Positions 322 through 52,790 of a stretch of DNA of 59,473 nucleotides are shown here, one piece after another. Position 1 is the first letter of the stretch, and each line of letters begins with the position of its first letter. Location of the stretch: contig JAWKSL010000003.1 in NCBI GenBank assembly GCA_041389085.1, positions 1 to 59,473 of the forward strand. Direction: 5' to 3'. The stretch comes from Minisyncoccota bacterium. GTDB taxonomy: Bacteria; Patescibacteriota; Minisyncoccia; UBA6257; 1-14-0-10-44-23. The notes below the pieces were generated by a model. That model saw nothing but the letters and a program-made list of their open reading frames with translations. It searched no databases and was not told where the DNA came from. The translations under genes were made by a program, and so were the position numbers.

Positions 322-360
322 TTTAAAAGAAAGCGGCCCGTTGCCTTGCGGCTACGGGCC
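322..360 (-). terminator. Intrinsic terminator of the GC-rich three-ORF unit
   Basis: Minus strand reads GGCCCGTAGCCGCAAGGCAACGGGCC followed by GCTTTCTTTT. Confidence 0.65.
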
Positions 361-513
361 TTGCTTGTGTACGAGCGGATACCAAAGGCTCCACTCTGGC
401 ACGCTCTTGGCGCGCACGCTCTCTGGTGTCAGCCAGAAAGAGGCGGTGTCGAGAACGGCTACGAACAGAAAGAGGAGGAAGATCACACAGAAGATTCGTC
501 CGATGATCTTCAC
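352..513 (-). CDS. Small membrane protein, 53 aa (GC-rich island)
   Basis: GTG start overlaps the upstream stop (GTGA), with AGGAG 7 nt upstream. VKIIGRIFCVIFLLFLFVAVLDTASFW... has one TM helix. Own translation, below the ORF-track cutoff. Confidence 0.5.
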   Translation of the reverse strand: MKIIGRIFCVIFLLFLFVAVLDTASFWLTPESVRAKSVPEWSLWYPLVHKQGP

Positions 514-662
514 CTCCCTGCTCCTGCGTGCACTTCGGCTCGCTTGAGCTGTTCCTCCTGGTAGACCTCTTCAGAGTTTCGGCTGAAGAAGTAGGCGACG
601 ACGCAACCAGCGATGAGCAAGAGGATCATCTGCTGGTTTTCGGATAGCTTTTTGATGCGCAT
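510..662 (-). CDS. Small membrane protein, 50 aa (GC-rich island)
   Basis: ATG preceded by a GGAGG-containing RBS. MRIKKLSENQQMILLLIAGCVVAYFFSRN... has one TM helix. Own translation. Confidence 0.5.
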   Translation of the reverse strand: MRIKKLSENQQMILLLIAGCVVAYFFSRNSEEVYQEEQLKRAEVHAGAGR

Positions 663-702
663 GCATTCCTCCTCTGCACCAACGGTGCAGTTTTGGCTAG
701 CC

Positions 703-948
703 TCAGGTTGGGCAGGGTTTTCGCGTCCAGACCATCTGGCGCAAGTAGTAGCCTCCTGCCGCTTCGCGCTTGTCGGGCACCCAGCGCAGCACCACGGTGC
801 GTTCCCAGATATACATCTGGGGCGCTTGCGGTAGCGGAATGGGCACAGTTTCCTGAACTTGAGCTCCCGGAACGGGAACTCGCTTGTCTTCTGCTCGTGC
901 GGGCGTTGCCCAGGCGAACAGAAGGAAAAGTGCGATGAGCTTTTTCAC
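703..948 (-). CDS. Small secreted protein, 81 aa (GC-rich island)
   Basis: Lies in ORF-track frame 703..984. The likely start is GTG at 948 with an AAGGGGG RBS. VKKLIALFLLFAWATPARA/ED is a signal peptide with an AxA cleavage site. Confidence 0.55.
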   Translation of the reverse strand: MKKLIALFLLFAWATPARAEDKRVPVPGAQVQETVPIPLPQAPQMYIWERTVVLRWVPDKREAAGGYYLRQMVWTRKPCPT

Positions 949-1049
949 GCAACCCCCTTTGTTTTGAGAACTTCTATATTTCACCCCAAATTTGAATATT
1001 TTTCAATAGTTAAGGGTTTGGTTGTCTGCTAAAATAGTGAGCATACGTT

Positions 1050-1885
1050 ATGAAGAAATTTGGCTCAATTGAGCAATTTAAAGCTGAGAACGGCTACGAT
1101 TTTGACGATGGCTGGTACCCGCGCGTAACTCGAATAGTAGAAATGAAGGCGAAGCCAGCGCTTTTAAAGTTTTATGCCGATGTTGGTTTTGATGCGGCTA
1201 AAAGAATCGCTGAGCGAAGTGCTGCGAAGGAACTGCAGTGCACGATGTGGCTGAAAAGATGCTTCTTGGCGACATACCGTCTGTAGTTGATGAATCTATA
1301 CGCCCAAGCATTAGTGCTTTCTGGGACTTTTTGCAGAAGAAAGAAATAAAGGCAGATGGTGAGCACATAGAGCTTCTCGTAAAAAACGATGAGCACCGAT
1401 ATGCTGGTACTCTCGACGCTTTAGTGGAGATGGATGGAAAGTTTGGGGTGCTCGATATAAAGACTTCTTCTGGAATTTATCGCGATTACAACTTGCAAAC
1501 GAGTGCTTACGTAGATGCGCTGCAGAAAAAGTTTCCAAACCTTAACCATCGCTGGATACTACGTATAGACCAGCAGCAGACTTGCAGGCGTTGCGGAGCA
1601 AAGCGACGAATGAAGGGCGGGCGTGAAAACATAAAGCGGGCTTTTGGGGAAGAAAGAGTTTTGGGTTTAACGGGCACTACGACATAATCAACCATTGCAA
1701 AAACAATGAACACGATTGGATGGAACCTCTTGGTGAAATAGAGCTCAAAGAGCTTCCGCTAAACTGGCGCGCTGATTTTGAGGCTTTTCTTGGTGCTAAA
1801 AAACTTTGGGAAATGGGAATTTGCAGACTGGCTCGATAGCTGGGATACGGAAATAATCAACAGAGTTTACTTTAAAATTGAAAAG
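1050..1885 (+). pseudogene. PD-(D/E)XK (RecB/Cas4-like) nuclease, frame-disrupted
   Basis: ORFs 1050..1286, 1238..1687, a frame-1 segment (HYDIINHCKNNEHDW...) and 1778.. read as one protein across three frames. Nuclease-core motifs GTLDALVEMDGKFGVLDIKTS and QTSAY are present, plus a CxxC. Frame breaks lie near 1229 (AAGGA where AAGGGA is expected), 1630-1680 and ~1815 (an extra A). No stop occurs before the GC-rich island at 1886. Confidence 0.7.
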
Positions 1886-1912
1886 GGGTTGCGAGCTCTT
1901 GGCTCACAACCC
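1876..1912 (-). terminator. Intrinsic terminator
   Basis: Minus strand GGGTTGTGAGC-CAAGA-GCTCGCAACCC followed by CTTTTCAATTTT. Confidence 0.55.
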
Positions 1913-1922
1913 TCACGCGGCT

Positions 1923-2027
1923 TCAGATCAGGCTGCCTTCTGCTTCTTCGGGCCCTTGTACTTGCCCATCTCCCGGGCGCTGCGGCCCCTTCTTGTTGCG
2001 CCTCCGGCTTCCGTTGGGTGCTCCCAT
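1923..2027 (-). CDS. Tiny basic ORF, 34 aa (GC-rich island), speculative
   Basis: ATG at 2027 with a GGGAGAG RBS. MGAPNGSRRRNKKGPQRPGDGQVQGPEEAEGSLI. A terminator lies immediately downstream. Own translation. Confidence 0.3.
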   Translation of the reverse strand: MGAPNGSRRRNKKGPQRPGDGQVQGPEEAEGSLI

Positions 2028-2100
2028 GTTTGGGGCTTCTCTCCCTTCACTAGCGAAGGGTATAGCTGAGGTTAGCAAAAGGCTACTTTCTTTTCAAATT

Positions 2101-2143
2101 TTAAAAAGGAAGCCTCGCGCGACTGGTGTGTCGCACGAGGCTT
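2101..2143 (-). terminator. Intrinsic terminator
   Basis: Minus strand AAGCCTCGTGCGAC-ACACCA-GTCGCGCGAGGCTT followed by CCTTTTT. Confidence 0.65.
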
Positions 2144-2158
2144 GGTGGGCCGGACGGC

Positions 2159-2338
2159 TCAGCGCTTGTCCGCAGAGGGCGAGCTTACCGTCGCGTTTTC
2201 GCGGCGGATTTCACGCTCTCTACTACGATAGGTGCGCATTTTGCCGTCGGAGCACTTGAAGGTGACCTTGCCGCTTTCCTCCATTGGTGGCGGAGGTGGC
2301 AGACTCGGGCGTCCTCTTCGGTGGTGTTTCCCTGGCAT
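2159..2338 (-). CDS. Small Arg/Pro-rich protein, 59 aa (GC-rich island)
   Basis: ATG at 2338 with an AGGGAGA RBS. MPGKHHRRGRPSLPPPPPMEESGKVTFKCSDGKMRTYRSRER... The ORF ends 16 nt before the terminator stem. Own translation (one codon below the track cutoff). Confidence 0.45.
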   Translation of the reverse strand: MPGKHHRRGRPSLPPPPPMEESGKVTFKCSDGKMRTYRSREREIRRENATVSSPSADKR

Positions 2339-2383
2339 GCGTATCTCCCTGGTTGCCGGCTCTAATATTTTATCAAAATGAAA

Positions 2384-2791
2384 CTAGGAGTTATCCCCTT
2401 TTTTGAAATCGAGACTGACTGAGTTTATACAGTAGTGTTTTCCGTCGCCTTTGTAGTCTTCGAAAACGTGGCCTAAGTGCGACCCACACTGTGCACAGAC
2501 TACTTCTACACGCTCCATACCATGCGAGGTATCGAGCTGGGTCTTTACTGCGCCTTCTATTGCGTTTCTAAAGTGTGGCCAACCTTGTAGTCCTATCGGC
2601 CCGGTACGGGAATTTGCCTTTGTTTTCGACGAAAAGAGGGCGTTATTGCAGACTTTACAGTGGTAGAGGCCGTCATCTTGCAAATCTACATATTCGCCCG
2701 AGAAAGGGGCTTCAGTACCCTTGTTTTGCGTTACGTCGAAGGCCTGGTTCCCTATCTTTGCCTTGAGGTCTTTTGCTGTTTTTTCGTCCAT
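2384..2791 (-). CDS. msrB: Peptide-methionine (R)-S-oxide reductase
   Basis: 135 aa with two CxxC pairs (CKVCNN, CAQCGSHLGHVF) and the GWPHF motif typical of MsrB/SelR. Confidence 0.9.
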   Translation of the reverse strand: MDEKTAKDLKAKIGNQAFDVTQNKGTEAPFSGEYVDLQDDGLYHCKVCNNALFSSKTKANSRTGPIGLQGWPHFRNAIEGAVKTQLDTSHGMERVEVVCAQCGSHLGHVFEDYKGDGKHYCINSVSLDFKKGDNS

Positions 2792-2840
2792 TATGGTATG
2801 TTGTATTTTAGAGTGCTAATTAATCCAAATAATACCATTT

Positions 2841-3302
2841 ATGCAAAATAAAGTTTTAGTAATCTTAATCGTTATCTTGCTTATCATCATCGGTATCGTT
2901 GCTGTGCAGAACAGTAAGATGGATGATACTAGTGACGATGAAATGACTGGGGAAGAAATGCAGGCTGATGACGCTATGATGGAGGGCGACGACTCTCAGG
3001 CAAGCGCTGACAGCACTGGTGTGGTAGCGGGAGTAAACATCAACACTTCACTTGCTGGAGTTTGGAAGAGCACCGCACTACCTCGTTACATCCTTGAGCT
3101 TTCAGCTGACGGAGTAGCTCGCGAATACTACGCAAAGACACTTACCAACACTGGAAGCTGGACTGCAAGCGACGAAAGCTTGAACGTAGTATTTACCGGA
3201 CGCAACTACAGCTACAAACTTATCACCGTAAATCGTGATAGTTTCGTGGTTGAATACATCGCAACTGGTGAGCGACTACAGTTCACTCAAGCAAACTACT
3301 AA
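2841..3302 (+). CDS. Membrane-anchored protein with an acidic Met/Asp/Glu-rich linker
   Basis: 153 aa with an N-terminal TM helix followed by DDTSDDEMTGEEMQADDAMMEGDD. Confidence 0.7.
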   Translation: MQNKVLVILIVILLIIIGIVAVQNSKMDDTSDDEMTGEEMQADDAMMEGDDSQASADSTGVVAGVNINTSLAGVWKSTALPRYILELSADGVAREYYAKTLTNTGSWTASDESLNVVFTGRNYSYKLITVNRDSFVVEYIATGERLQFTQANY

Positions 3303-3303
3303 A

Positions 3304-3330
3304 TAAAAAAGCGCCTTCGGGCGCTTTTTT
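3304..3330. terminator. Bidirectional intrinsic terminator
   Basis: AAAAAAA-GCGCC-TTCG-GGCGC-TTTTTT between convergent genes. Confidence 0.8.
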
Positions 3331-4276
3331 AGTGCTTGAGTTTTGCCATGAAGTGGCTTTGCCGGCTGGCGAAGTGGAACAATGTCGTAAGCTCTTCGCT
3401 ATTGAGCTGCATTGTACTTTTACCAAGATGGTGGGCATAGAAGCTTTCGAGAAAGTTTGCTTGATTGATAACGCGCTTGAGCTCAAAAAAATTGTAGTTT
3501 GGTCCTTGGTTTGTTTGCAGGAGGGCGTCTTCAAGCCTTCCTTTGAGTTCTTCTTGGCGCTCTTTTGTCTGGGTTGTAAGAACTACTTTTACACTTACTT
3601 GCATAAGCGGTTTTGCCACTTTGCTTTCGAGAATTTGAATGCTGTCTGAGGTGAGAACAAAGTCTTTGTTAAGTAGTAGCCTCCCCTCCTCGTAGTTGCC
3701 CTCGTTTAGCTTTATAAGCAGCTCGTTTATCTCTTCAAGCTTGGCTGCATTTTCGGGGCGAACGTTTACCTGAAGGGCTATTCCTTCATTGAAGCTAAAA
3801 AGGTCTGAACTCACCCGTAAAAGGGCCTCAAATAGGCCAAAATCGCCCTTTAGGGCTGTTTTTATAGGTAGGGCGGCCTCCTTTGCCTGCACTATGGAAT
3901 AGGTCGAAACTTCTTGATTTGTGTCGAGAAAAAGGCTTCTCTCTGAAAAGGCTTTTAACTCTACAAACTTCTCGTGCCAGATACTGGTAGTTAAAAGATT
4001 TAGTTTCGTTACATGCTTTTTTGGCACTCCGATAAGGAGGTGGATTTCTTCGCTGGCGCTGTGCACAAAAAGCTCGAGACTGAAATCTATTGAAAGTTCA
4101 GCGAGGCGCTCAAAAAGTGCTTGGCTGCACTGAATGTTTTTTTCGCGCTTTTCGTGTTTTGAGATGAGTTCGAAAAACTGGTAGCCGCCTTGAATTTTTT
4201 GGCGCTGCATTTTTTCTTGTACAAAAAGTGCGATGAGCAACAGCGCAAATGCGTAGCTAAAAATTAACACTTCCAT
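3329..4276 (-). CDS. Hypothetical membrane-anchored protein
   Basis: ORF 3329..4330. The likely start is MEVLIFSYAFALLLIALF (ATG at 4276), giving an N-terminal TM helix. No family recognised. Confidence 0.65.
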   Translation of the reverse strand: MEVLIFSYAFALLLIALFVQEKMQRQKIQGGYQFFELISKHEKREKNIQCSQALFERLAELSIDFSLELFVHSASEEIHLLIGVPKKHVTKLNLLTTSIWHEKFVELKAFSERSLFLDTNQEVSTYSIVQAKEAALPIKTALKGDFGLFEALLRVSSDLFSFNEGIALQVNVRPENAAKLEEINELLIKLNEGNYEEGRLLLNKDFVLTSDSIQILESKVAKPLMQVSVKVVLTTQTKERQEELKGRLEDALLQTNQGPNYNFFELKRVINQANFLESFYAHHLGKSTMQLNSEELTTLFHFASRQSHFMAKLKH

Positions 4277-4361
4277 ATTTCTTTCTTGAGTATAGCAAGG
4301 ATTTTGCTTTAGCCGTGGCGGATGACCCACCGCAATGCTTGGGCGAGGTGGTCTAGACTTA

Positions 4362-5357
4362 CTACCCGTGCCTAATCACCATCACATCGCCGTCTTGAAC
4401 GATGTAGTCTTTGCCTTCTACGCGCATTTTTCCTTTCTGCTTTGCACCGTTCCAGCTTCCCGCTTCTACAAGGTCGTTATACCCAACAACTTCGGCCCTA
4501 ATAAACTTTTCTTCAAAGTCGCTGTGTATTGCTCCTGCTGCTTCTGGTGCTGACGATCCATTTTTTATCGTCCATGCTCGTGTTTCCTTCTCTCCTGTTG
4601 TGAAAAAGCTGATGAGGCCAAGGAGGTGGTAAGTTCCTTTAATGAGAGCTGATAGGTCTGGTTCTTTGCCAAGGTCGCTTATTACGTATTCACTTCCTTC
4701 TTCTGCTATGGCTGCTTTGAGCTCTTCGCTTACGTCTGAATTTTGTCCGTTAAGTAGGTAGAGTTTCTTTTTTGCTGAGAGTAGTCTGAGTTCTTTGATT
4801 AAATCGTCGTTTGCAAACTCCATGATTGATTTGCCCTCGGCGAGCAATGCCTTCACTTTTGAAAGTATCTCTACTTCCTTTTGAGCTTTTTTGTCTCCAC
4901 TTCGCGATTCTCTCTGAGCTTTGTCGAGACGTGTTTCAACTTGCTCAAGATCTTTGAGTGCAAGCTCAGCATTTATTGTTTCCATGTCTGAAAGTGGGTT
5001 TACCTCGTTGTTCACGTGGATAATGTCTGAGCCACCAAAGCAGCGTAGTACGTGCACGATAGCATTTACCTCTTTTATGTGTTGCAAAAACTTGTTTCCA
5101 AGCCCCTCTCCTTGTGAAGCTCCCTTTACGAGCCCGGCGATGTCGTAGAACTCTACGATAGCTGGGATAAGCTTTTCTGATTTGGAAATTTCGTTGAGCT
5201 TTTCAAGACGCTGGTCAGGTACTTCAACTATTCCTACGTTTGGGTCGATTGTCGCAAATGGGTAGTTTGCGGCAAGAATGCCTTTACTTGTGAGGTGGTT
5301 AAAAAGCGTTGATTTTCCAACGTTTGGTAGTCCTACTATTCCGATTGAAAGTTTCAT
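4362..5357 (-). CDS. ychF: Ribosome-binding ATPase YchF (Obg-like)
   Basis: MKLSIGIVGLPNVGKSTLFN P-loop, DIAGLVKGAS, and a C-terminal TGS-like YIVQDGDVM. Confidence 0.9.
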   Translation of the reverse strand: MKLSIGIVGLPNVGKSTLFNHLTSKGILAANYPFATIDPNVGIVEVPDQRLEKLNEISKSEKLIPAIVEFYDIAGLVKGASQGEGLGNKFLQHIKEVNAIVHVLRCFGGSDIIHVNNEVNPLSDMETINAELALKDLEQVETRLDKAQRESRSGDKKAQKEVEILSKVKALLAEGKSIMEFANDDLIKELRLLSAKKKLYLLNGQNSDVSEELKAAIAEEGSEYVISDLGKEPDLSALIKGTYHLLGLISFFTTGEKETRAWTIKNGSSAPEAAGAIHSDFEEKFIRAEVVGYNDLVEAGSWNGAKQKGKMRVEGKDYIVQDGDVMVIRHG

Positions 5358-5374
5358 GATTTATCAATTATATA

Positions 5375-5800
5375 TGAATTCCCGCGCGTAGCTACTTATA
5401 GCGTACGCGCGGGACTGAAGGGGGAACCGACCGGTGCACTACTCGATTGATCAGGAGAAAGGGAATCCTTGCTAGCGTCGAGCTCGCTCTCCGGTCGGTT
5501 CGCTGAGGTTTGTCTATCGCGTGCGTGAGACCTGATTAGTTCAGCCTCTCGCCCTTCTCATCCACTGGAAGCTTTCGCCACGACAAGGAATTCGTGTTCC
5601 CCGCTCCCATGTTCAGGGTGTGTGGCACCACACATACGGCACCTTGAGGTGTGGGTGCAGGGCTCCATAGGGCACTAGTCCGTACCTTTTGGCCTGGATG
5701 AGAACACTTGCTCTTTCTAGGTAAGTTTTCCCTAGGACGTTTTTGGGCTATGAACAAGCGTGGTCTTGGTGCGACGTTTGGTTAGCCTACTTTAGCTTAG
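5375..5800. ncRNA. GC-rich non-coding region with extensive helices; candidate structured RNA of unknown class
   Basis: No convincing ORF despite high G+C. There is a 10-bp perfect hairpin CCCGCGCGTA..TACGCGCGGG (5381-5413), an 11-bp long-range helix GAACCGACCGG..CCGGTCGGTTC (5424-5501), and alternative hairpins around 5615-5660. Strand is undetermined. Confidence 0.3.
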
Positions 5801-5803
5801 CTT

Positions 5804-6208
5804 TTATATCAAGCCTTCAGACTTGAGCTCGATAAATACGTCGTCTGGAATTTCTGGCCTCTCGCCTTCTTTTGTTTTCCCTGGGTAGCGCCAGGTGGAT
5901 ATCATAGTGATGCGGGATTTTTTACTACTCTCTTTATCTAAAATACTTTTCTTTTTTTGCCCCTGGTTTATAACATACATAATCCAAAGCTCTTCTTGGT
6001 CTGGGCCAGTCTGCTTTGAAGTAGCGCTTTTGTTTTTCTTTTTCGTGCGCATAGCCGCAATTGTGTTTGGCGCTATACCCTCCTCTACGCGTTCTGGGTT
6101 TCTAAAAATGCGATTTATCTGAGCTTGAGAAATGTGGTAGTAGAGCATTTTGTTTTTAATATGCATCGTCCAACTAAAGCGCTCATTGTTTTTTGGCAGT
6201 GTAAACAT
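5804..6208 (-). CDS. Hypothetical protein
   Basis: 134-aa ORF tightly packed after the upstream gene (stop/start spacing 1 nt). Lys-rich central segment. No family assigned. Confidence 0.65.
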   Translation of the reverse strand: MFTLPKNNERFSWTMHIKNKMLYYHISQAQINRIFRNPERVEEGIAPNTIAAMRTKKKNKSATSKQTGPDQEELWIMYVINQGQKKKSILDKESSKKSRITMISTWRYPGKTKEGERPEIPDDVFIELKSEGLI

Positions 6209-6209
6209 G

Positions 6210-7082
6210 CTACTCAGCTTGTGGGTCCACTATCTTTTCTTCTGTACTTTCTTCTATTTCCTTAGGTTGTGGCACACTTCCTTTTTCGGTGAAAAAGACT
6301 CTGTTTTTTACTGACAAATTTACTTCGCTGAATGCGCTTAGATTCTCATCGTCTGCGAGTTTGGCCAAGGCTGGGATAGCACTAATTCCTGGATCAAAGC
6401 GGTAGCTAAAACGGATTGTTGTGCCATTTTTTGTCTTAAACTGAAACTCTTGTAAGTCGCGGTGCAAAAGTATTTTTTCAACACTGACTTTTTTTGCTTT
6501 CATTGCGGCAATGATTGATTTTAAATATTCAAACTGTGTCGAAAGCACTACCTTTTCCCCACGCTCAAATCCAATCGTACTTACTGGTTCATGAATACTT
6601 AAGATAAGCTGACCGCTTGTGTTGGGCGCACTTTCAAATGCTTGCCCCGTTTCGTCTACCCATTGGCATGCGAGATATTCCGCTTCTTCTACAATTTTTG
6701 ATTTACACCAGCTTAAATACTGTATTTTTGGTTTTGTATAAATTTGGACCTCCCGGGTTTTAAAACTTTTTTTAACTTCTATCGACATAAACCGTTGGTC
6801 GCTATAGTGTTCGCCTCTTTCCCAAACAAAAAGACTGTTTTCGCCAAGCAACACTTTCCCTGATGAACTAAGTACTTGGGAGTTTAAATCTCTCAGAAAT
6901 TCTTTTGGGCTTGTACTTTCATTTAGCCCATAAATTTGAAAGCGTGAAACTTGGAACAGTGGAGAGAAAATAACTAGATAGCACAGACCAAAAAATGCCC
7001 CGATTCCGACGAGGATATACGCCCACTGCTTTACCTTGCTTAAAAGAGCAACTTCTTTGTGTCGCTTACTTTTGAAGTGCAT
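6210..7082 (-). CDS. ftsQ: Cell division protein FtsQ-like (TM + POTRA)
   Basis: N-terminal basic segment and TM helix followed by FQVSRFQIYG (POTRA start). Located directly downstream of ddl and alr, a dcw-type context. Confidence 0.6.
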   Translation of the reverse strand: MHFKSKRHKEVALLSKVKQWAYILVGIGAFFGLCYLVIFSPLFQVSRFQIYGLNESTSPKEFLRDLNSQVLSSSGKVLLGENSLFVWERGEHYSDQRFMSIEVKKSFKTREVQIYTKPKIQYLSWCKSKIVEEAEYLACQWVDETGQAFESAPNTSGQLILSIHEPVSTIGFERGEKVVLSTQFEYLKSIIAAMKAKKVSVEKILLHRDLQEFQFKTKNGTTIRFSYRFDPGISAIPALAKLADDENLSAFSEVNLSVKNRVFFTEKGSVPQPKEIEESTEEKIVDPQAE

Positions 7083-7085
7083 GTA

Positions 7086-45232: not shown

Positions 45233-45234
45233 AA

Positions 45235-45466: not shown

Positions 45467-45467
45467 T

Positions 45468-46372: not shown

Positions 46373-46375
46373 TTT

Positions 46376-46858: not shown

Positions 46859-46879
46859 ATTTATGAGTGTAGCAAACTC

Positions 46880-46907
46880 TTGCAGTATCTAGCGTCTTTG
46901 ATATAAT
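46880..46907 (+). promoter_or_regulatory. Sigma70-like promoter of tRNA-Cys
   Basis: TTGCAG-N16-TATAAT, 28 nt upstream of the tRNA. Confidence 0.6.
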
Positions 46908-46935
46908 CGCTTTGTTCTACCAATTCCATTCATAC

Positions 46936-47011
46936 GGGCCTTTAGCTCATCTGGTAGAGCGCCTCATTTGCAATGAGGAGGTGACCGGTTCGAGTCCGGT
47001 AAGGTCCACCA
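46936..47011 (+). tRNA. tRNA-Cys(GCA), CCA encoded
   Basis: Fold: GGGCCTT TA GCTC ATCTGGTA GAGC G CCTCA TTTGCAA TGAGG AGGTG ACCGG TTCGAGT CCGGT AAGGTCC A CCA. Confidence 0.9.
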
Positions 47012-47015
47012 AGAA

Positions 47016-47087
47016 AAACGGCTCACGAACACCAAGGAAGTACTGAGCCGCGAATATACGGCCTACACGTACGTGTGAGCCGTTAAA
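47016..47087. repeat. Palindromic repeat element, locus B
   Basis: AAACGGCTCAC (47016), CCAAGGAAGTACTGAGCCGCGAA, and the palindrome ACGGCCTACACGTACGTGTGAGCCGTTAAA (47058-47087). It starts 5 nt after the tRNA-Cys CCA. Confidence 0.8.
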
Positions 47088-47120
47088 GTTAGGCGAGACT
47101 TCGCGTGCATCCTTTAAAGT

Positions 47121-47148
47121 TTGACAAAGTATATTTTTGTGTCATAAT
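47121..47148 (+). promoter_or_regulatory. Near-consensus sigma70 promoter of the GC-rich membrane protein cassette
   Basis: TTGACA-N16-CATAAT. Confidence 0.65.
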
Positions 47149-47179
47149 TAAGTCTGGACACTAACAGAAGGAGGCCGTC

Positions 47180-47782
47180 GTGAAAGATGCGTTTGCGATC
47201 GCTTCGGCGGTCTTCCTCGGACTTGCGAACCTGCCCTACTGGTGGGCGATCATTCGTGGCCAGGGTAAGCCTGTGCGTGCGAGCTGGCTCATCTGGGCTA
47301 CGCTCGACACAATCACCTTCTCTGGCATGTACGCTGCTGGTACGCTTACCCCTCAAGTTTCTACTGCCGTCTTTGGCGTTTGGGTGATTTTCATCCTTTC
47401 GCTGTGGCGCGGCAGGCCAGGCTGGACTCGGGTAGACAAGCTGTGCCTGCTCGGCGCTGCCATCGGTGTGCTGCTCTGGCAGTATTTCGACGATCCGGTG
47501 CTTGCCGTTGTGGCTTCGCAGTTTACTGCGCAGCTTGGGTGCATCCCGACCTATCTGTCTGCGTGGGAGGATCCGTCGCGTGAGAGCCGATTTGCTTGGA
47601 CCCTTACATGGACTTCGTCTGTGTTCGCAGTCCTCGCGATTCCACAGTGGACGTTTGGAGATGCAACAGCTCCTCTAAGCTTCCTCTTGAACAGTTCGAT
47701 CATGCTACTCATCTTCTCCATCCGCGCTCGACAAGAACGGGCGCAGCGAGAGAAGGGACTCACCGTCCTCTTCAACGACTAG
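47180..47782 (+). CDS. GC-rich integral membrane protein (6 TM), unknown family
   Basis: GTG start with GGAGG 5 nt upstream. 200 aa hydrophobic protein (LANLPYWWAIIRGQGKPVRASWLIW...). A terminator follows. Confidence 0.7.
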   Translation: MKDAFAIASAVFLGLANLPYWWAIIRGQGKPVRASWLIWATLDTITFSGMYAAGTLTPQVSTAVFGVWVIFILSLWRGRPGWTRVDKLCLLGAAIGVLLWQYFDDPVLAVVASQFTAQLGCIPTYLSAWEDPSRESRFAWTLTWTSSVFAVLAIPQWTFGDATAPLSFLLNSSIMLLIFSIRARQERAQREKGLTVLFND

Positions 47783-47789
47783 TTGCCTG

Positions 47790-47833
47790 GCCCCGCGCTA
47801 TACCCTCTGAGGTTGGCGCGGGGCTTTGCTTTT
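47790..47833 (+). terminator. Intrinsic terminator
   Basis: GCCCCGCGC-loop-GCGCGGGGC followed by TTTGCTTTT. Confidence 0.75.
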
Positions 47834-47853
47834 GGTATAACTATGGAGCACTT

Positions 47854-48702
47854 ATGCACCAAGTAATTCTTTTCTATAAATACACCGACATTGCCGACCC
47901 AGTTGCTCTTTCGTACTCTCAGCGCGAGCTTTGCGAGTCTTTGAATTTAAAGGGGCGCATTATCATCGCCAAGGAAGGTATAAACGGAACGCTGGAAGGC
48001 TCAGCTGAAAACGTTGAGGCGTATGTCGCAAAGCTTTTAGAGCTTCCTGGATTTTCTGACATAGATGTAAAACGCAGCGAAGGCACTGGAAATGCCTTTC
48101 CGAAACTAAAAATAAATGTGCGCGATGAAATTGTTTCTTCAAAGCTACACGAAAGCGTAAACCCTGCGGTAGATACTGGAAATCACCTGGATGTAGACCT
48201 TTTGCACAAATGGTATGAGGAAGGTGAAGACTTTGTGATAGTCGACATGCGAAACGACTACGAATACGTAAGCGGGCATTTTGAAAAATCAATCAACCCG
48301 CAATTTCGTGATTTTCGTGATTTAGCTGAGAAAGTAGATTCACTTGAAATCCCGAAAGATAAAAAAGTAGTTACTGTTTGTACTGGTGGAGTTCGCTGCG
48401 AGAAGGCATCTGCGTTTTTAAAACAAAAGGGTTATAAAGACGTGTACCAGCTTAAAAATGGTATGCACACCTACCTTGAAAAATACCCGAAGGGGCACTT
48501 TAAAGGATCGCTCTATGTATTTGATGGGCGCGTAACCGTGCGTTTCGATAAGGATGGAGAAGTTATCGGGCGCTGCGAGTTCTGCGCTGCTCCTACCGAG
48601 CTTTACGCAAACGACGATACTGCCGGGCGCAGCCGCCACATACTTTGTTGCGAAAACTGTCTTGCTTTAAAGCAAGAGCAGAGTCTTTCAATTCGCCGCT
48701 AG
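47854..48702 (+). CDS. trhO: Rhodanese-domain tRNA uridine(34) hydroxylase TrhO (UPF0176/YceA)
   Basis: Start at MHQVILFYKY. CTGGVRCEKA rhodanese loop and a C-terminal Cys cluster. The upstream part of ORF 47596.. lies in the preceding cassette and is not coding in this frame. Confidence 0.85.
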   Translation: MHQVILFYKYTDIADPVALSYSQRELCESLNLKGRIIIAKEGINGTLEGSAENVEAYVAKLLELPGFSDIDVKRSEGTGNAFPKLKINVRDEIVSSKLHESVNPAVDTGNHLDVDLLHKWYEEGEDFVIVDMRNDYEYVSGHFEKSINPQFRDFRDLAEKVDSLEIPKDKKVVTVCTGGVRCEKASAFLKQKGYKDVYQLKNGMHTYLEKYPKGHFKGSLYVFDGRVTVRFDKDGEVIGRCEFCAAPTELYANDDTAGRSRHILCCENCLALKQEQSLSIRR

Positions 48703-49082
48703 TCGCCCACTATTACTTCAAACCCTCCAAATGCCATCTTTTTCATATCGAAAGGCATGCCGCTTTCTTTGTGGTCTTTTGGCGGCTGCATTTCTTCGTC
48801 TTTCATAACTTTCGCATTTACCTGATCGCGATGCTTCTTTGATTTATACTCGATGTAGGAAAAGCATACTACTTCGTTTGGCTTTGCTTTTGTGAGTTTT
48901 GGGAAAGTGAGCGTTATCCACTTTGGACTTCTGTCGTTGATGACGCACTCTTTGTAGCCAAGCGCTCCGTGCTTCATCCAAACTTTTTTCCCAATTGCTG
49001 CCATTTTCTTATAATCAGCAAGCTTTGTCTTTTTTACTGTGAAAACAAATCCGTCTACGTATTTTACTTTTGCTTTTGCCAT
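48699..49082 (-). CDS. DUF1428 family protein
   Basis: 127 aa with YVDGFVFTVKK...FDMKKMAFGGFEVIV, typical of DUF1428. Confidence 0.75.
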   Translation of the reverse strand: MAKAKVKYVDGFVFTVKKTKLADYKKMAAIGKKVWMKHGALGYKECVINDRSPKWITLTFPKLTKAKPNEVVCFSYIEYKSKKHRDQVNAKVMKDEEMQPPKDHKESGMPFDMKKMAFGGFEVIVGD

Positions 49083-49087
49083 GCTTT

Positions 49088-49870
49088 TTAGAGTTGGTGG
49101 TGGTGACGCATTGGTGCGTCTTTAATAATTTCTAATACTTCGTCGAGGTCGTCGGTGATTGTGTAGAGGTCTACGTCTTCTTTTGAAATTGTTTCAAACT
49201 CGTCGCGAAGCTGCTCCTTTATAAACTTATCGAGAGGTTCCCAGAAGTCTTTGCCTATCAAAACTATTGGTATTTGCTCGATTTTTCTCGTTTGTACGAG
49301 AGTAAGAATTTCGAAAAGCTCGTCGAGTGTTCCGTACCCACCTGGGAAGTACACATACACTTCTGCTGAAAACGTAAGTGCTACTTTTCGTGTAAAGAAA
49401 TAGTGAAAGTCTACTCCGTGAGTTACGTACTTATTGATAACTTGCTCGTATGGAAGCTCGATGTTGAACCCGACTGCGCTTCCGCAGCTTTCGTTTGTTC
49501 CCCTGTTTCCCGCTTCCATGATTCCTGGGCCTCCTCCGGTAATAACGGCGTAGCCGTGGCGGCATAGTTCGGTCGCAAGGTGGCGAGCTTTTTTGTAGTA
49601 GGGGTGGTTTTGGGTAAAGCGCGCACTTCCAAAAAATGTAACTGATTTTGGGTATGCGTGAGCAGCTTCAAGGCCGGCTTCAAATTCTTTTTGTACGCGT
49701 GAGCCTGTGCGTTTTATTTCTTCACTAATTTCCTCAAGGGTGTGAGGCTCTCTTTTTAGTTTGTGGTCTGGCTCACAAATGCGAACCTTGCCATCTTTAT
49801 CAACGATTTTTGTAAAATCTGCTCCTGGAGTTATCGGGCATACCATCGGGTATTCTTTTTCTTCTTTCAT
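49088..49870 (-). CDS. LOG family / TIGR00730 Rossmann-fold nucleotide-binding protein
   Basis: VTFFGSAR, ITGGGPGIMEAGNRG and PGGYGTLDELFE motifs. Confidence 0.85.
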   Translation of the reverse strand: MKEEKEYPMVCPITPGADFTKIVDKDGKVRICEPDHKLKREPHTLEEISEEIKRTGSRVQKEFEAGLEAAHAYPKSVTFFGSARFTQNHPYYKKARHLATELCRHGYAVITGGGPGIMEAGNRGTNESCGSAVGFNIELPYEQVINKYVTHGVDFHYFFTRKVALTFSAEVYVYFPGGYGTLDELFEILTLVQTRKIEQIPIVLIGKDFWEPLDKFIKEQLRDEFETISKEDVDLYTITDDLDEVLEIIKDAPMRHHHQL

Positions 49871-50124
49871 ATGGCTTTTTCTTGAATTAGTAATCGTTTC
49901 TTTTGCGTGCTTCCTCCCGCTAAGCTGTAGCCTCCTACGTTTCCGTCTGAGCGAATAACGCGGTGGCAGGGAACTTCCTTACTTTTATTTTTTCCAAGAG
50001 CGTTTGCCACTGCCCTGTACGCCTTTGGCTTACCAATTTTATGAGCAAGCTCTTTGTACGTGAGCGTGCTTCCTTTTGGAATGCTTTTTGTTGCGCTAAA
50101 CACTGCCTCTTGAAAAGGGGTCAT
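49867..50124 (-). CDS. MGMT-family (methylated-DNA--protein-cysteine methyltransferase) DNA-binding domain protein
   Basis: 85 aa with the active-site PCHRVI and a GSTLTYKELA helix-turn-helix. Confidence 0.8.
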   Translation of the reverse strand: MTPFQEAVFSATKSIPKGSTLTYKELAHKIGKPKAYRAVANALGKNKSKEVPCHRVIRSDGNVGGYSLAGGSTQKKRLLIQEKAI

Positions 50125-50149
50125 GTTTATATTTTAGCACAGGCGATTT

Positions 50150-50557
50150 TTAGAGAAGGATGAGAGCGAGGGCCATGCCGATGGCTGAAAGGAGTTGGTA
50201 GCTGGCTTGCACGAGAAAGTACTTTTTGTCTTTCATTTCGTAGGCTGCGTGCGTAAGCATTACTGCAAAGGTAAATCCGGCCCAAATAGTAAGTGTGGTG
50301 CAAAACGCGTCTTTTACTGTTACGATTCCAAACTGATCAAAAATACTGCTAAGTACTATTGCGCTCAAGAGCGACATAAGTAGGCTTATTGTCATCGCTC
50401 GGGGAGCGCCCTTTTTGAGCTGCTCCATGTGCGCTGGGTTACTCGGATCTTTGCCGATACCTCTGAGCCACACTTTTCCAAATACTTTCATTGAGTACCA
50501 AATTGATCCAAGGATCATTGGCACTATAGCTGCTGCAATAATTGCTAATATATTCAT
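50150..50557 (-). CDS. DUF1761 membrane protein
   Basis: 135 aa with 4 TM helices. The N-terminus MNILAIIAAAIVPMILGSIWYS is typical. Confidence 0.7.
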   Translation of the reverse strand: MNILAIIAAAIVPMILGSIWYSMKVFGKVWLRGIGKDPSNPAHMEQLKKGAPRAMTISLLMSLLSAIVLSSIFDQFGIVTVKDAFCTTLTIWAGFTFAVMLTHAAYEMKDKKYFLVQASYQLLSAIGMALALILL

Positions 50558-50578
50558 GGGTTGGTTAATGGTTATTAG

Positions 50579-51211
50579 TTATTGGTTAGTAGTTAGTGGG
50601 TAGTGGGTGGGGTTATCGGTGGAAGCCGAGGTCTGCTGGGTTGTGGTCGCCGCTAACAAACTCCATTTTACCACCTGCTTTTTCAAACTTTTTCTGAGCT
50701 CAGTTACTTTTTCTGAAAGCTGCACTGTTTCTTCCGCTACCTTTTCTTTTTTAATGTACCCCTTTGACCAAAATTTTAGGATTAGCTGAGAATCTCCAAA
50801 TACACTCCTTTCTTTTTTCTTTAGAGCAATTTCGAGGGCAAATTTTGCTGCTAAAAGCTCTCCAAAGTTGTTGGTTAGCTCCTTCCCATCTGGTTTATGG
50901 GTTTCGTGTTTGGTATTTACTAGCTTTTTTGGGAGTAGGTTTTCCCCTTTTTCGTTAGTTACTTTTAGCTCTACGCCGTGGCCCCTGCCGGTGCCAGCAT
51001 CGAAGTAAATACCCTTCTTGAGTTTTGGGGCTTTTTTGGGCTCATATTGGGCTCCTTTTTTGAGCCACTCAGTAGCTTCACTTTTGGTTGGAAAGCCCTT
51101 AAAACGGGCATTTTTGCCCTTTACGAGGGCCTCGCACTCGCTCCATGATTGGCAGACCCCAAACTCCCCTGTGCTGAGTAAATATCCGTAGAAATTGTTC
51201 TTTTTCGGCAT
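50579..51211 (-). pseudogene. RNase H1-type protein with N-terminal hybrid-binding (Cauli_VI-like) domain; 3' frameshift
   Basis: The N-terminus FYGYLLSTGEFGVCQSWSECEALVKGKNARFKGFPTKSEATEWL is the hybrid-binding domain. The conserved end GGKMEFVSGDHNPADLGFHR-stop (to 50613) is in another frame. The shift is at an A5 run (A6 expected) near 50677. Confidence 0.7.
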
Positions 51212-51214
51212 GGT

Positions 51215-51892
51215 TTACTGAACTTGCTGGGCTGTCATCTCAAAGCTTAAAATAGCCTCCTCTCCAACTGAGAATACTTCAAATTTGCTTGGTGGCTCTA
51301 TTCCAAAGTCGATCATATTGATTTGCGCCTCACCCTTAGCACCAATTCCCTGTAGCTCATGACTTGTTGTTACTTTGAATGGAACTTTCTTTTCCACTCC
51401 GTTTATTTTAAGCATTAGCTCAATATCATGAAACCCTGAGCCTCTAGCAGGTTCCATCTCTGCTATGTTTAATATTTGTACAGGCTTTGCAAGGGTTACT
51501 AGAATATTTCCTTGGCTTGCAAAGAGAGCTTGCACATCTTCATCGCGATTATCGTTTCCGCTTTTAAAAGTTTGGTCGTTTATCTCAACATTGAGCGCAG
51601 TGAGGGTGTTTGTTTTAGCATCGAAGCTTAGCGAGCCTTTTACGTTTGAGGTGCTGCCTATAACCTTTTCTACTGGCTTACTAAACCACATTTTATCTAC
51701 AGTGTAACTTGCAGTTGCTTGGCTAATGGTGTGGGTTTGTTCTATAGACACCTCTTGCGCTTGAGCTTTTTCCTCCATAGCCTTGGTCTGAATTTCACTT
51801 TCTGGGGCACTTACTTCTCCTCCCTGCTTTAAAAATGCTCCAAGGAGCAGGGCGATTACTACTAGCGCAAGTACGATAAATAGTTTTTTCAT
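51215..51892 (-). CDS. YceI-like domain protein, membrane-anchored
   Basis: 225 aa with a TM anchor and then ASYTVDKMWFSKPVEKVIGSTSNVKGSLSFD...KSGNDNRDEDV. Confidence 0.7.
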   Translation of the reverse strand: MKKLFIVLALVVIALLLGAFLKQGGEVSAPESEIQTKAMEEKAQAQEVSIEQTHTISQATASYTVDKMWFSKPVEKVIGSTSNVKGSLSFDAKTNTLTALNVEINDQTFKSGNDNRDEDVQALFASQGNILVTLAKPVQILNIAEMEPARGSGFHDIELMLKINGVEKKVPFKVTTSHELQGIGAKGEAQINMIDFGIEPPSKFEVFSVGEEAILSFEMTAQQVQ

Positions 51893-51996
51893 TTCCTTAA
51901 AATTGCTTAATATTCTGATTATTCGGGTTTATTATACCTTTTCCTCTTTAGAAAACAAAAAACCCGCCGAAGCGGGTTTTTTAAGAAAAATGAGCT

Positions 51997-52278
51997 TTAT
52001 TGAGCTGCTTCTTCGGTTGAAGATGCGTCTTCTGTGGTCGCTCCTTCGTCAGTTGAAGTCGCGCTGTCGTCTTCCATTGCAGCACCATCTTCGGTTGAAG
52101 TTGCGCTGTCGTCTTCCATTGTCGCTACTTCGTTAGTTGAGGTTGCGCTGTCGTCTTCCATTGCAGCACCATCTTCCTCTACCATTGCGTCTTCTCCATC
52201 GTTGTCAGATCCGCCAAAAAGGCTAAATCCAAGAATGATGAGCACTACAATGATTAATACAATTAAAAGTTTCTTCAT
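51997..52278 (-). CDS. Membrane-anchored acidic repeat protein
   Basis: 93 aa with a TM anchor and then three 14-aa MEDDSATST-type repeats. Confidence 0.65.
   Translation of the reverse strand: MKKLLIVLIIVVLIILGFSLFGGSDNDGEDAMVEEDGAAMEDDSATSTNEVATMEDDSATSTEDGAAMEDDSATSTDEGATTEDASSTEEAAQ
52052..52177. repeat. 3 x 42-nt tandem repeat (coding)
   Basis: GTTGAAGTCGCGCTGTCGTCTTCCATTGCAGCACCATCTTCG and two near-identical copies, at 52052, 52094 and 52136. Confidence 0.9.
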
Positions 52279-52414
52279 TGTGGTTTGTTATTTAATAATA
52301 AAAGCTCATTCGTTCTCTTGAGCTCGTAGGATTCTTTTTATCAAAGATTGGGCGTGCTGGCAAATTAGCCTGTTTATAGCTGTGAAATGCCGATTTTCTG
52401 CATGTTATACAGGG

Positions 52415-52501
52415 CGGAAGGGGCGGGATTCGAACCCGCGGTACGATTGCTCGCACACATCCTTTCCAAGGATGCGCATTCGACCACTCTGCCACCCTTC
52501 C
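52415..52501 (-). tRNA. tRNA-Ser(GGA)
   Basis: GGAAGGG TG GCA GAGTGGTCGAA TGC..CATCC TTGGAAA GGATG, a long variable arm, GCGGG TTCGAAT CCCGC CCCTTCC G. Confidence 0.88.
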
Positions 52502-52534
52502 GCGCTACATATCATTTTAAAAGGACGAGGCGAC

Positions 52535-52741
52535 TCATTGCTGAGTCGCCGGCGGGAGCAGCTTAATTCGCCAGTCTGGCTGTACGCTCGCAAGGTTTTC
52601 TGCGAGAAGGGGGTGTAAAACCTCTTCCCTTACCTGGCACTCGCTCATACCTGTCTGACGAGCAGCAAACTCAACGAACTGAGCTATTGTCATTTCGCCC
52701 CCTGATTTTTCAAGGAGCTCAACTGCTTGCTTCAGAGGCAT
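52535..52741 (-). CDS. Small moderately GC-enriched ORF, 68 aa
   Basis: TTGAAG-N17-TAATCT promoter, AAGGAGAGG RBS. MPLKQAVELLEKSGGEMTIAQFVEFAARQTGMSECQV... Located 34 nt from tRNA-Ser. Confidence 0.55.
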   Translation of the reverse strand: MPLKQAVELLEKSGGEMTIAQFVEFAARQTGMSECQVREEVLHPLLAENLASVQPDWRIKLLPPATQQ

Positions 52742-52790
52742 AAACCTCTCCTTTCTTGCTTAGATTATCTAAAAATTGATCGCTCTTCAA

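Follow-up and report, generated by a model that had tools for sequence, protein, structure and literature searches.

Seven segments of the window (the whole stretch of 59,473 nt that was analysed) are autonomous units of promoter, ribosome-binding site, ORF and terminator, and two further GC-rich segments, islands C and E, are non-coding. We consider it somewhat more probable than not that the units are accessory cassettes that resemble morons, had a foreign source (probably within Patescibacteria) and were fixed before speciation. The islands are old conserved residents that a sister species also has, not fresh imports from a host. The compositional step, the unit architecture, the synteny, the purifying selection and the distribution of the island H gene within Patescibacteria were observed directly. 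The window itself belongs to the small, symbiont-type chromosome of a member of the Patescibacteria (Paceibacteria-type) and carries mainly housekeeping genes; the neighbours of the islands are ddl, serS, a lysS/asnS-type synthetase gene, adk, map, pheS, a Mur ligase gene, msrB and a ychF-like gene.

The preliminary description of this DNA listed nine sharply GC-rich segments in an AT-rich backbone. The compositional steps are real at both the segment and the gene level; that of island I is marginal (GC 0.50–0.53). The GC content of the whole window is 45.2%, and those of segments A to I are, in order, 0.571, 0.592, 0.545, 0.564, 0.592, 0.588, 0.552, 0.577 and 0.500. The G+C counts made by hand, 45/60 at 11041–11100 and 25/60 at 8281–8340, were exact on recount. 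Backbone genes (n = 52) had a mean GC of 0.444 (sd 0.022, maximum 0.49) and a GC3 of 0.43 (sd 0.048). Comparatively, the GC of the island ORFs was 0.53–0.71, which is 4–12 sd over the backbone, and their GC3 was 0.51–0.88. Codon choice, for which a comparison had been suggested, differed strongly: the shares of Pro CCA, Val GTA and Leu CTG were 0.60, 0.43 and 0.07 in backbone genes and 0.16, 0.15 and 0.26 in island genes. The islands are thus foreign-looking by composition and codon usage. We estimated from GC3 that their codon usage is similar to that of a genome of roughly 58–62% GC, and horizontal acquisition is therefore the most likely origin of the cassettes. The remaining windows above 0.54 GC (e.g. 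12627–12935, 15330–15584 and 27798–28127) were within ordinary genes and formed no sharp islands.

Each cassette lies in an intergenic gap. An AT-rich promoter of the sigma-70 type and a Shine-Dalgarno site precede its 1–3 small ORFs, and a strong intrinsic terminator follows them; the islands are 0.25–1.1 kb long. Promoters and terminators flank the ORFs, as expected from the earlier claim that most islands are self-contained expression units. Of the nine islands, seven are gene cassettes and the other two (C and E) are RNA-structure regions. A scan found consensus-like promoters and strong hairpin/T-run terminators at B1, B2, D1 and I and, at H, a promoter; those of the remaining units were read from the sequence. 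In 1–12000, the three strongest terminator-like hairpins were those of B1, D1 and B2. In 44000–53000, the terminator hairpin with the most G-C pairs was that of island I and the best promoter match (11/12, extended TG) was that of island H. Three islands adjoin tRNA genes; the one beside island H, formerly read as tRNA-Cys, is tRNA-Ala (anticodon TGC). The encoded products are mostly orphan small proteins, plus H, F and G. The small ORFs had no match among Pfam and NCBIfam models, and their products would be secreted, membrane or basic proteins. Islands A, B and I contain only such ORFs:

A1, 703–948, minus strand: 81-aa ORF with a GTG start, first gene of island A
A2, 510–662, minus strand: 50-aa ORF with one hydrophobic segment, GC3 0.71
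A3, 352–513, minus strand: 53-aa hydrophobic protein with a GTG start, GC3 0.74
B1, 2159–2338, minus strand: 59-aa basic, Pro-rich ORF with a Met-Pro start
B2, 1886–2050, minus strand: second small basic ORF, about 35–40 aa, frame uncertain, terminator 1886–1912
I, 52529–52741, minus strand: 68-aa ORF (52535–52741) beginning Met-Pro, weakly GC-rich

The N-terminus of A1 (GC 0.60, GC3 0.63) carries a hydrophobic segment that, judged by eye, is signal-peptide-like. Its orthologue in the sister contig L048 was 89–90% identical, with a dN/dS of 0.18. The sister copy of A2 had diverged (28% amino acid identity) with an unchanged layout, and A3, with a GC hairpin and T-run downstream of it at about 327–362, had a near-identical C-terminal half in L048 (dN/dS 0.44). 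B1 has a 14-pair terminator at 2110–2143, and its orthologue was 78% identical (dN/dS 0.19). Both ends of the B2 ORF were kept in the sister, in differing frames relative to the window. The island I terminator (52529–52550) is 27 nt from tRNA-Ser, and the orthologue in L045–47 was 97% identical.

Island D consists of three tandem, unrelated ORFs about 366 nt apart, whose cassettes have regulatory modules but not coding sequence in common:

D1, 11004–11237, minus strand: 77-aa basic ORF beginning Met-Pro, GC 0.71, GC3 0.88, terminator 10950–10981
D1 promoter and leader hairpin module, 11256–11300, minus strand: CTGAGC(N)AACTC-GUGGG-GAGTT
D2, 10623–10871, minus strand: 82-aa ORF beginning Met-Pro
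D3, 10236–10505, minus strand: 89-aa ORF beginning Met-Pro
Further module copies, 10888–10935 (D2) and 10525–10575 (D3), minus strand

D2 had been described as a Met-Pro ORF beginning at 10889. It does begin Met-Pro, and the start is more likely the ATG at 10871, which an AGGAAAG ribosome-binding site precedes. In the public record D2 is an annotated gene in a cluster of one. The 15-nt core of the module had three exact matches and all three leaders were predicted to fold into the same hairpin. The motif was identical in the sister lineage, and it was absent from the 185,579 reference genomes and the JGI metagenomes searched. It seems that a duplicated terminator-promoter-leader module drives the three ORFs, and the predicted 5′ leader hairpin probably has a role in mRNA stability or regulation.

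The two non-coding islands are both on the minus strand:

Island C, 5372–5765, minus strand: candidate structured non-coding RNA of about 390 nt
Island E core, 16606–16637, minus strand: 13–14-bp GC hairpin followed by a U-run

Island C sits between a gene for a 134-aa protein and the ychF-like gene, and its minus strand had a fold z-score of −4.5. In comparison with the sister contig L051, there were 97 consensus pairs, of which 10 had changed on both sides and none was broken. Rfam 15 gave nothing at the gathering threshold, at E ≤ 5 for the whole window or at E ≤ 10 for 5340–5820 alone. Island E, between the pheS-like gene and adk, is a terminator hairpin region. In the sister lineage its core had two changes, both G-U wobbles on the minus strand, and a more variable GC-rich stem extends upstream of the core to about 16727.

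The three larger proteins are encoded by islands F, G and H:

F, 20727–21416, minus strand: 229-aa protein of divergent YfiH/PgeF type (Cu-oxidase_4)
G, 44605–45232, plus strand: gene for a membrane protein, disrupted by a 2-nt deletion near 44739
H cassette, 47121–47830, plus strand: promoter, GGAGG ribosome-binding site, 200-aa 7-TM protein and terminator
H promoter, 47121–47148, plus strand: TTGACA-16-CATAAT with TG
H ORF, 47180–47782, plus strand: terminator at about 47790–47830

F lies 120 nt from tRNA-Asp and has its own promoter (about 21440–21475) and terminator (about 20693–20722). Residues 68–221 matched the PF02578 profile (E = 1.4e-11, 44.7 bits against a cutoff of 22.9), which suggests a YfiH/PgeF-like enzyme. 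The PgeF equivalog model TIGR00726 was rejected (23.1 bits against a cutoff of 141). F is a divergent YfiH/PgeF relative, not demonstrably PgeF. It is syntenic in L040–43 (81% amino acid identity), and the more distant relative L044 has a 34%-identical counterpart, likewise beside tRNA-Asp, for which an old resident gene would fit as well as a xenologue. Island G is one gene split by the deletion; its intact form encodes 209 aa and is followed by a terminator at about 45236–45265. Several genes in the window are frameshifted, including G and the nuclease gene; the latter had rightly been called a pseudogene, as a sister lineage has an intact 275-aa version. The model of H (pLDDT 94) has 7–8 helices, and its thirteen best PDB matches were cystinosin, KDEL receptor and SWEET structures, with query-normalised TM-scores of 0.48–0.67 and weak Foldseek E values (0.03–0.5). 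These structures all belong to the PQ-loop/SWEET/cystinosin/KDEL-receptor 7-TM superfamily, whose transporters have a seven-helix fold of two three-helix bundles and a linker helix that H may share; the sequence profiles of Pfam and NCBIfam gave no match. H may be a PQ-loop/SWEET-type transporter, to judge from its predicted structure.

Comparison of the same intergenic sites in relatives, one of the proposed checks, bore on the age of the islands. Islands A, B, C, E, F, G, H and I occupied the same sites, and were equally GC-rich, in sister lineages that had been assembled independently (about 80–92% DNA identity), and the opening promoter and leader of island D were also found in a sister lineage. 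The GC values in the sister assemblies were 0.57 for H (against about 0.44), 0.60 for F (against 0.45) and 0.55 for G, and those of A, B and C were elevated. H was syntenic in L036–38. Sister assemblies from other samples crossed every tested island boundary. Therefore, neither chimeric assembly nor recent insertion accounts for the islands; ongoing or repeated capture is not supported, and acquisition predates the split from the sister lineage. Chimeric joins or contaminant fragments are extremely improbable: in at least six other runs (SRR23004066, 069, 074, 075, 078 and SRR32608987; Logan assemblies), individual contigs ran across island-backbone junctions and the gene order was unchanged, and the AT-rich promoters and terminators are integrated with the neighbouring genes. 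The sole caution was the frameshifted genes. Indels that differed between lineages had a backbone-like or AT-rich composition. All relatives examined carried the cassettes, and none with an empty island site turned up that would have shown an insertion directly.

That the islands were acquired recently and repeatedly from a donor of high GC, for example the host of the symbiont, is very improbable and largely refuted. The codon usage resembling a genome of about 60% GC would agree with it, as would the distant H homologues (~31% identity) on Burkholderia and Paraburkholderia megaplasmids. However, all tested islands were syntenic in sister lineages, in which the synonymous sites of the backbone are close to saturation, and the taxonomically labelled closer relatives of H (38–88% identity) were all Patescibacteria, the nearest ones at 40–54% identity. 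G had only two relatives, both close, among 1.84 billion representative proteins, F had two besides itself, and island D DNA had no match in plasmid records. The preliminary proposal of a high-GC host as donor was thus not upheld; we identified no donor outside Patescibacteria and no donor genome for any island.

The island genes are under purifying selection (dN/dS 0.12–0.44). Their synonymous sites raise an alternative, that the genes are native or very old and that their GC-richness is actively maintained rather than a fading donor signature. The cause would be selection on synonymous sites (for expression level or mRNA structure) or GC-biased gene conversion at often-recombining loci. In both lineages the island GC3 stayed near 0.65 despite the near-saturated synonymous sites of the backbone. 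Identity at four-fold sites was about 0.74 in island genes and about 0.58 in backbone genes (our pooling of per-gene values), and 24% of island G/C four-fold sites differed between the sister lineages compared with 53% in the backbone. The difference also appeared within single contigs: 0.28 for F against 0.74 for the Mur ligase gene, 0.21 for H against 0.65 for the gene of its 260-aa neighbour, and 0.11–0.20 for A1, A3 and B1 against 0.41–0.57. Such conservation is the opposite of neutral decay toward an AT-rich backbone. Tracts of about 100% identity around island I (52147–52800) and beside island G (45230–45545) indicate recombination between the sister lineages.

The H family bears on both readings. 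In 28 other Patescibacteria genomes, its GC3 exceeded that of flanking genes by 0.12 on average, and the excess was above 0.1 in 15 of the 28, compared with 3 of 45 serS and ychF controls (Mann-Whitney P = 1.5e-4). The family was GC3-richer than the host genome in most of the 28 and rarely poorer, which agrees with maintained GC. Nevertheless, some H homologues had host-like GC (the distant homologue in L039, and those in L056, L059 and L085). There is no known reason why these unrelated small genes should need GC-rich codons, and the other membrane and small genes of the window have backbone composition. The similarity is patchy, so that tracts of recent exchange may explain part of the lower synonymous divergence; the sample is also small, and NG86 estimates become noisy as saturation is approached. 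We regard maintained GC as fairly unlikely. Against the horizontal reading itself count the lack of an identified donor genome and of a relative with an empty island site, the near-orphan status of G, F and the small ORFs, the lower divergence of island synonymous sites than of those of their neighbours, the one-sided GC bias of the H family, which is unexpected from random transfer, and the counterpart of F beside tRNA-Asp in L044.

For acquired cassettes, the source, at least for H, would lie in the gene pool of the Patescibacteria and not in a host. Closely related H proteins occur in genomes labelled Harrisonbacteria, Ryanbacteria and Moranbacteria, which points to transfer within the phylum. 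According to published work (PMC12455944), the gene transfers detected into Patescibacteria mostly have other Patescibacteria as their source. The reported absence of an integrase, transposase or attC-like site was confirmed in that we found no integrase domain and no border repeats. Because no recombinase is present, we propose that entry was probably through DNA uptake and illegitimate or homology-assisted recombination, before the lineage and its sister species split. Afterwards the cassettes would have been passed down at their original sites, subject to purifying selection and to some homologous exchange between the sister lineages.

Horizontally acquired islets are classically detected by atypical composition, and Lawrence and Ochman reportedly described the amelioration of acquired genes in a model. 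The islands resemble such genomic islets in their atypical GC, GC3 and codon usage, in their orphan or patchy genes and, for three islands, in their proximity to tRNA genes. However, they are very small and without mobility genes, their GC is above that of the host genome, while an excess of AT is usual for foreign DNA in bacteria, and their synonymous sites are better conserved than those of the backbone, without decay toward it. An integrase-mediated, tRNA-linked island was rejected, as the ORFs had no integrase domain and the repeat search found no border repeats.

Island D is similar to an integron array in its tandem unrelated small ORFs parted by a repeated module. However, each ORF has its own promoter and the repeated unit is a terminator and promoter, not attC or another recombination site. 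Neither intI nor attI was found in or beside island D, so a cassette array was rejected; integron-like capture finds no support in cassettes that carry their own promoters, the module within island D being the only one shared. Origin from phage, as true morons of a lost prophage, or through an integron-like recombinase is quite improbable, though the unit architecture equals the definition of a moron and the tRNA genes adjoining three islands and the repeated module of D would fit. Beyond tRNA-Asp there are two partial direct copies of its own 3′ end, and also a repressor gene of the XRE type, and these have the look of scars left by earlier integrations; however, the repeat scars are on the 3′ side of the tRNA gene and island F is on its 5′ side. 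IMG/VR contained no relatives of H, F, A1, B1, D2 or D3, and PHROGs gave only two weak, non-significant matches (E = 0.014 and 0.053). With housekeeping neighbours, no att repeats at the island borders and cassettes in all relatives examined, prophage-borne morons were rejected.

The cassettes nevertheless resemble the phage moron, said to have been described by Hendrix and Juhala as an additional gene, inserted between conserved genes, that has a promoter and terminator of its own and differs in base composition. The island ORFs (1–3 per island) likewise lie in intergenic gaps, each set between a sigma-70-type promoter and a factor-independent terminator, and their composition departs from that of both neighbours (GC 0.53–0.71 against 0.444 ± 0.022). 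Unlike morons, the islands are in a chromosomal housekeeping region rather than a phage genome, and the cassettes are fixed and syntenic across sister species instead of being variably present.

Compositional islands are a textbook mark of horizontal transfer, and DNA of foreign origin is usually AT-richer. The preliminary description had reported sharply bounded GC-rich segments within an AT-rich backbone. Comparison of GC, GC at third codon positions (GC3) and codon usage showed that these steps are real and large. The segments, here islands A to I, lie as follows.

322-960: island A, ORFs A1-A3
1886-2365: island B, ORFs B1 and B2
5375-5800: island C, non-coding
10180-11311: island D, ORFs D1-D3
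16603-16727: island E, non-coding
20700-21440: island F, one ORF
44580-45268: island G, one ORF
47150-47833: island H, one ORF
52510-52765: island I, one ORF

The window has a GC content of 45.2%, and the nine segments have values of 0.50-0.59. The 52 backbone genes have a GC of 0.444 ± 0.022 (maximum 0.49) and a GC3 of 0.43 ± 0.05. Comparatively, the island ORFs, whose frames were set by ribosome-binding sites, reach 0.53-0.71 in GC and 0.51-0.88 in GC3, and their synonymous codon choice is clearly unlike that of the backbone. The two G+C counts made by hand were exact on recount. That all nine segments are far GC-richer than their surroundings was borne out in general, with island I borderline; the tRNA-Cys placed beside island H is actually tRNA-Ala (TGC). 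A survey of other Patescibacteria loci, about 330 kb in total, showed GC-rich ORF outliers to be uncommon, so the phenomenon is not universal.

The window, 59,473 bp long, makes up an entire public contig. Its backbone carries ordinary housekeeping genes.

4362-5357: ychF-like ATPase, named from its homologues
43173-44438: P-type ATPase, N-terminal half only
elsewhere in the window: D-Ala-D-Ala ligase; class II aminoacyl-tRNA synthetase of the D/K/N type
elsewhere in the window, by Pfam labels: SerRS, PheS-like synthetase, Adk, Map, Mur ligase, MsrB, M48 peptidase

A reading of 4362-5357 as murB was dropped, the homologues being ychF-like. Comparison of SerRS with 185,579 reference genomes gave, as its best relatives, Patescibacteria MAGs of at most 67% identity that did not share the gene order, and thus these serS-anchored relatives were unable to reveal an empty site. 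Accordingly, the organism belongs to the Candidate Phyla Radiation as a Paceibacteria-type member that has no close reference genome.

Closer relatives were found through homologues and members of 90%-identity clusters, which gave contigs of a sister lineage that had been assembled independently from other sequencing runs. Their DNA was 80-92% identical to the window. Islands H (L036-38), F (L040-43), I (L045-47), A and B (L048), C (L051), E (L052-54) and G (L055) all occupied the same sites in these contigs, and the opening promoter and leader of island D were present in L049 and L050. The sister-lineage islands were similarly GC-rich, with 0.57 for H against about 0.44 for its neighbors, 0.60 against 0.45 for F, and 0.55 for G. 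The shared sites and the shared high GC show that the junctions are genuine and that the islands are older than the lineage split. They are therefore neither chimeric assembly joins nor recent acquisitions. A counterpart of F, 34% identical and with a modest GC excess, adjoins tRNA-Asp in a more distant relative. Indels separating the window from the sister lineages were backbone-like or AT-rich in composition, and were not GC-rich islands.

L036 826-2097: CitMHS transporter gene
L045 3070-3408: 112-aa gene, GC 0.37
L048 2818-2976: 46-aa ORF
window 45696-46396: segment of about 700 nt

An old import decaying neutrally under the AT-biased regime of the backbone would predict the opposite of what we found at synonymous sites. 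With per-gene values pooled, four-fold-site identity was about 0.74 in island genes and about 0.58 in backbone genes, and the share of G/C four-fold sites that differed was 24% for islands and 53% for the backbone. Similar differences were seen within single contigs (F, 0.28 versus 0.74 for the Mur ligase; H, 0.21 versus 0.65 for its neighbor). Across the species split neutral sites are near saturation, and island GC was conserved. Tracts of about 100% identity occur amid 80-90% identity at window positions 52147-52800, around island I, and 45230-45545, adjoining island G. Such tracts suggest recent homologous exchange between lineages, and part of the low synonymous divergence of the islands may come from this recombination. 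Alternatively, in this comparison of two lineages, selection or biased gene conversion may keep the GC high.

The islands had also been described as complete expression units. This agreed with our scans, in which the strongest terminator-like hairpins of the scanned regions, and likewise the top-scoring promoter, belonged to islands; the other island promoters and terminators were read from the sequence. Measured against the sister contigs, dN/dS was 0.12-0.44 for island genes and 0.01-0.14 for backbone genes. A1, B1 and the C-terminal half of A3 were strongly conserved in the sister lineage. Judged from these sequence comparisons, the island ORFs are real genes. No Pfam or NCBIfam match was obtained for A1-A3, B1, B2, D1-D3 or I, and a PHROGs search of the same ORFs gave only two weak matches (E = 0.014 and 0.053). 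F matches the YfiH/PgeF-type Cu-oxidase_4 domain, with a score far under the cutoff of the PgeF equivalog profile. G is a membrane protein for which a set of 1.84 billion representative proteins held just two relatives; the sister lineage has an intact form of 209 aa, and the window copy has a 2-nt deletion (44739). The nuclease pseudogene noted beside island B was confirmed, the sister copy (L048) being intact at 275 aa and the window copy frameshifted. Together with the half P-type ATPase (43173-44438), the lesions in the nuclease (1050-1850) and G (44739) could reflect either real decay or assembly indel errors. Of ten island proteins looked up, only three occur in the public protein collection with start codons as assigned in this work.

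Protein H has 200 aa and lies in the membrane, and its structure was modeled with a pLDDT of 94. The thirteen best structural matches of the model were to cystinosin, the KDEL receptor and SWEET, with query-normalised TM-scores of 0.48-0.67 and weak E-values. On the basis of this model, H is probably a small-solute transporter. Among its closer relatives (38-88% identity), all that bear names are Patescibacteria; far more distant homologues (about 31%) were found on megaplasmids of Burkholderia and Paraburkholderia. The H-family gene forms a discrete GC-rich islet of one or two genes in genomes that carry the labels Ryan-, Kerfeld-, Harrison- and Moranbacteria. Its GC3 exceeded that of flanking genes by 0.12 on average (maximum 0.35) and by more than 0.1 in 15 of 28 other genomes, whereas the serS and ychF controls had mean excesses of 0.02-0.03 and exceeded 0.1 in 3 of 45 (Mann-Whitney P = 1.5e-4). 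Close H proteins occur in genomes of differing labelled lineages, which indicates transfer within the phylum. In two contigs, L066 (4001-5215, Harrisonbacteria label) and L065 (4001-5100, Kerfeldbacteria label), the GC-rich stretch runs about 500 nt beyond the H-family gene; in L066 the extension contains a second membrane ORF of 209 aa, which by eye looks related.

Two islands are non-coding. Island C yields a fold of about 390 nt on the minus strand (5372-5765) with a z-score of -4.5 against shuffled controls. Compared with the sister sequence, it has 97 consensus pairs, of which 10 changed on both sides and none was broken, and a 15-bp GC hairpin ends it just upstream of the ychF-like gene. 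No Rfam family matched island C, even with permissive settings. Exact patterns for its two conserved blocks were absent from the GTDB reference genomes and JGI metagenomes, and nhmmer found nothing in the other loci compared here. Island C is a candidate lineage-specific structured RNA, although two sequences are too few for establishing an RNA family. Island E, between the pheS-like gene and adk, has a conserved 13-14-bp hairpin with a U-run and a further, more variable GC stem; it is an ordinary terminator or leader region. Known RNA genes (RNase P, tmRNA, SRP and others) were rejected for the non-coding islands, with no match in Rfam or ARAGORN, and a 15-nt resemblance to the P4 region of E. 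coli RNase P was dropped for want of a model match.

Island D comprises three unrelated ORFs in tandem, with start codons exactly 366 nt apart. Repeated between them is a module made up of a GC-hairpin terminator with a T-run that overlaps the TTTACA of a -35 box, then a -10 box, the leader CTGAGC(N)AACTC-GUGGG-GAGUU, GGAGG or AGGAAAG, and ATG-CCN. The 5′ hairpin of the leader folds identically in all three copies. An identical leader lies downstream of serS in the sister lineage (L049, L050), and two independent sister assemblies end directly after it, as expected where a repeat leads into differing sequences. The exact leader motif was absent from the GTDB reference genomes and JGI metagenomes. 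The D repeat is a duplicated regulatory module and not an attC-type recombination site.

Other repeats were observed in the window. In the region 21560-22066, the 3′ part of tRNA-Asp recurs twice in direct orientation behind the gene, at 21683-21752 (93% over 70 nt) and 21768-21798 (31 nt), and a hairpin and T-run come after each copy; Rfam lists the first copy as a partial tRNA. An XRE-type HTH gene follows at 21869-22066 (Pfam HTH_3, E = 1.6e-13). The copies and this gene look like att-site scars that past integrations left on the 3′ side of the tRNA. A non-coding repeat of about 110-190 nt occurs in two full copies and one partial copy (25376-25545, 57366-57575 and 47012-47100). Its core is a perfect palindrome, ACGGCTCACACGTACGTGTGAGCCGT, with GAGCCGTTAA motifs. 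The partial copy sits between tRNA-Ala and island H, and sister contig L036 starts at the palindrome. No Rfam family matched this repeat, which could represent a miniature repeat element, a small RNA or a site bound by a protein. Inside an ORF at 51997-52278, just upstream of tRNA-Ser and island I, three tandem copies of a 42-nt unit (51997-52180) would encode a repetitive acidic peptide segment.

No donor was identified for any island. The host had been proposed as a source; nothing ties the islands to it, and the named closer relatives of H are Patescibacteria. Transfer of H within the phylum agrees with a published survey that traced most of the transfers it detected in Patescibacteria to other Patescibacteria (PMC12455944). 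A phage origin was also considered and set aside: IMG/VR scans revealed no viral relatives of H, F, A1, B1, D2 or D3, and PHROGs was negative. Of the original interpretation, the foreign-looking and self-contained character of the islands stands, and the host donor and a capture process, for which there was no sign of machinery, do not. The islands comprise foreign-looking, self-contained cassettes resembling morons (extra phage genes with their own promoter and terminator) and two regions of RNA structure. They are old, have become fixed and are under selection.

A broader reading, which we consider unlikely, is that Patescibacteria share a pool of tiny self-contained GC-rich cassettes (promoter-leader-ORF-terminator) that move between lineages without a dedicated recombinase, their GC being actively maintained by synonymous-site selection or biased gene conversion instead of being a decaying donor signature. 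The H family would be a widespread example, the D array with its reusable module a local elaboration and island C an additional new RNA class. Active maintenance of GC would suggest that a gene-specific force acts on base composition in ultra-small bacteria, and that these share a pool of accessory genes, a nutrient-transporter-like family among them, which shapes symbiont-host interaction. If the islands are ordinary old transfers, they still belong genuinely to the genome and could be lost by mistake in binning based on composition; small proteins that are real and selected, as well as a candidate new RNA, lie in them. Public annotation partly misses both the small proteins and the candidate RNA.

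Among known concepts, phage morons and transferred islets of atypical composition come closest. The islands fall outside the phage moron class in lacking a phage context, and outside the integron and integrase-island classes in lacking the defining recombination features. Unlike usual transferred islands, they carry no mobility genes and are single autonomous expression units; unlike usual foreign DNA, they are GC-rich in the AT-rich genome of a streamlined symbiont. What distinguishes them is this GC-rich polarity, the retention of GC through speciation and the recurrence of H-family islets across Patescibacteria.
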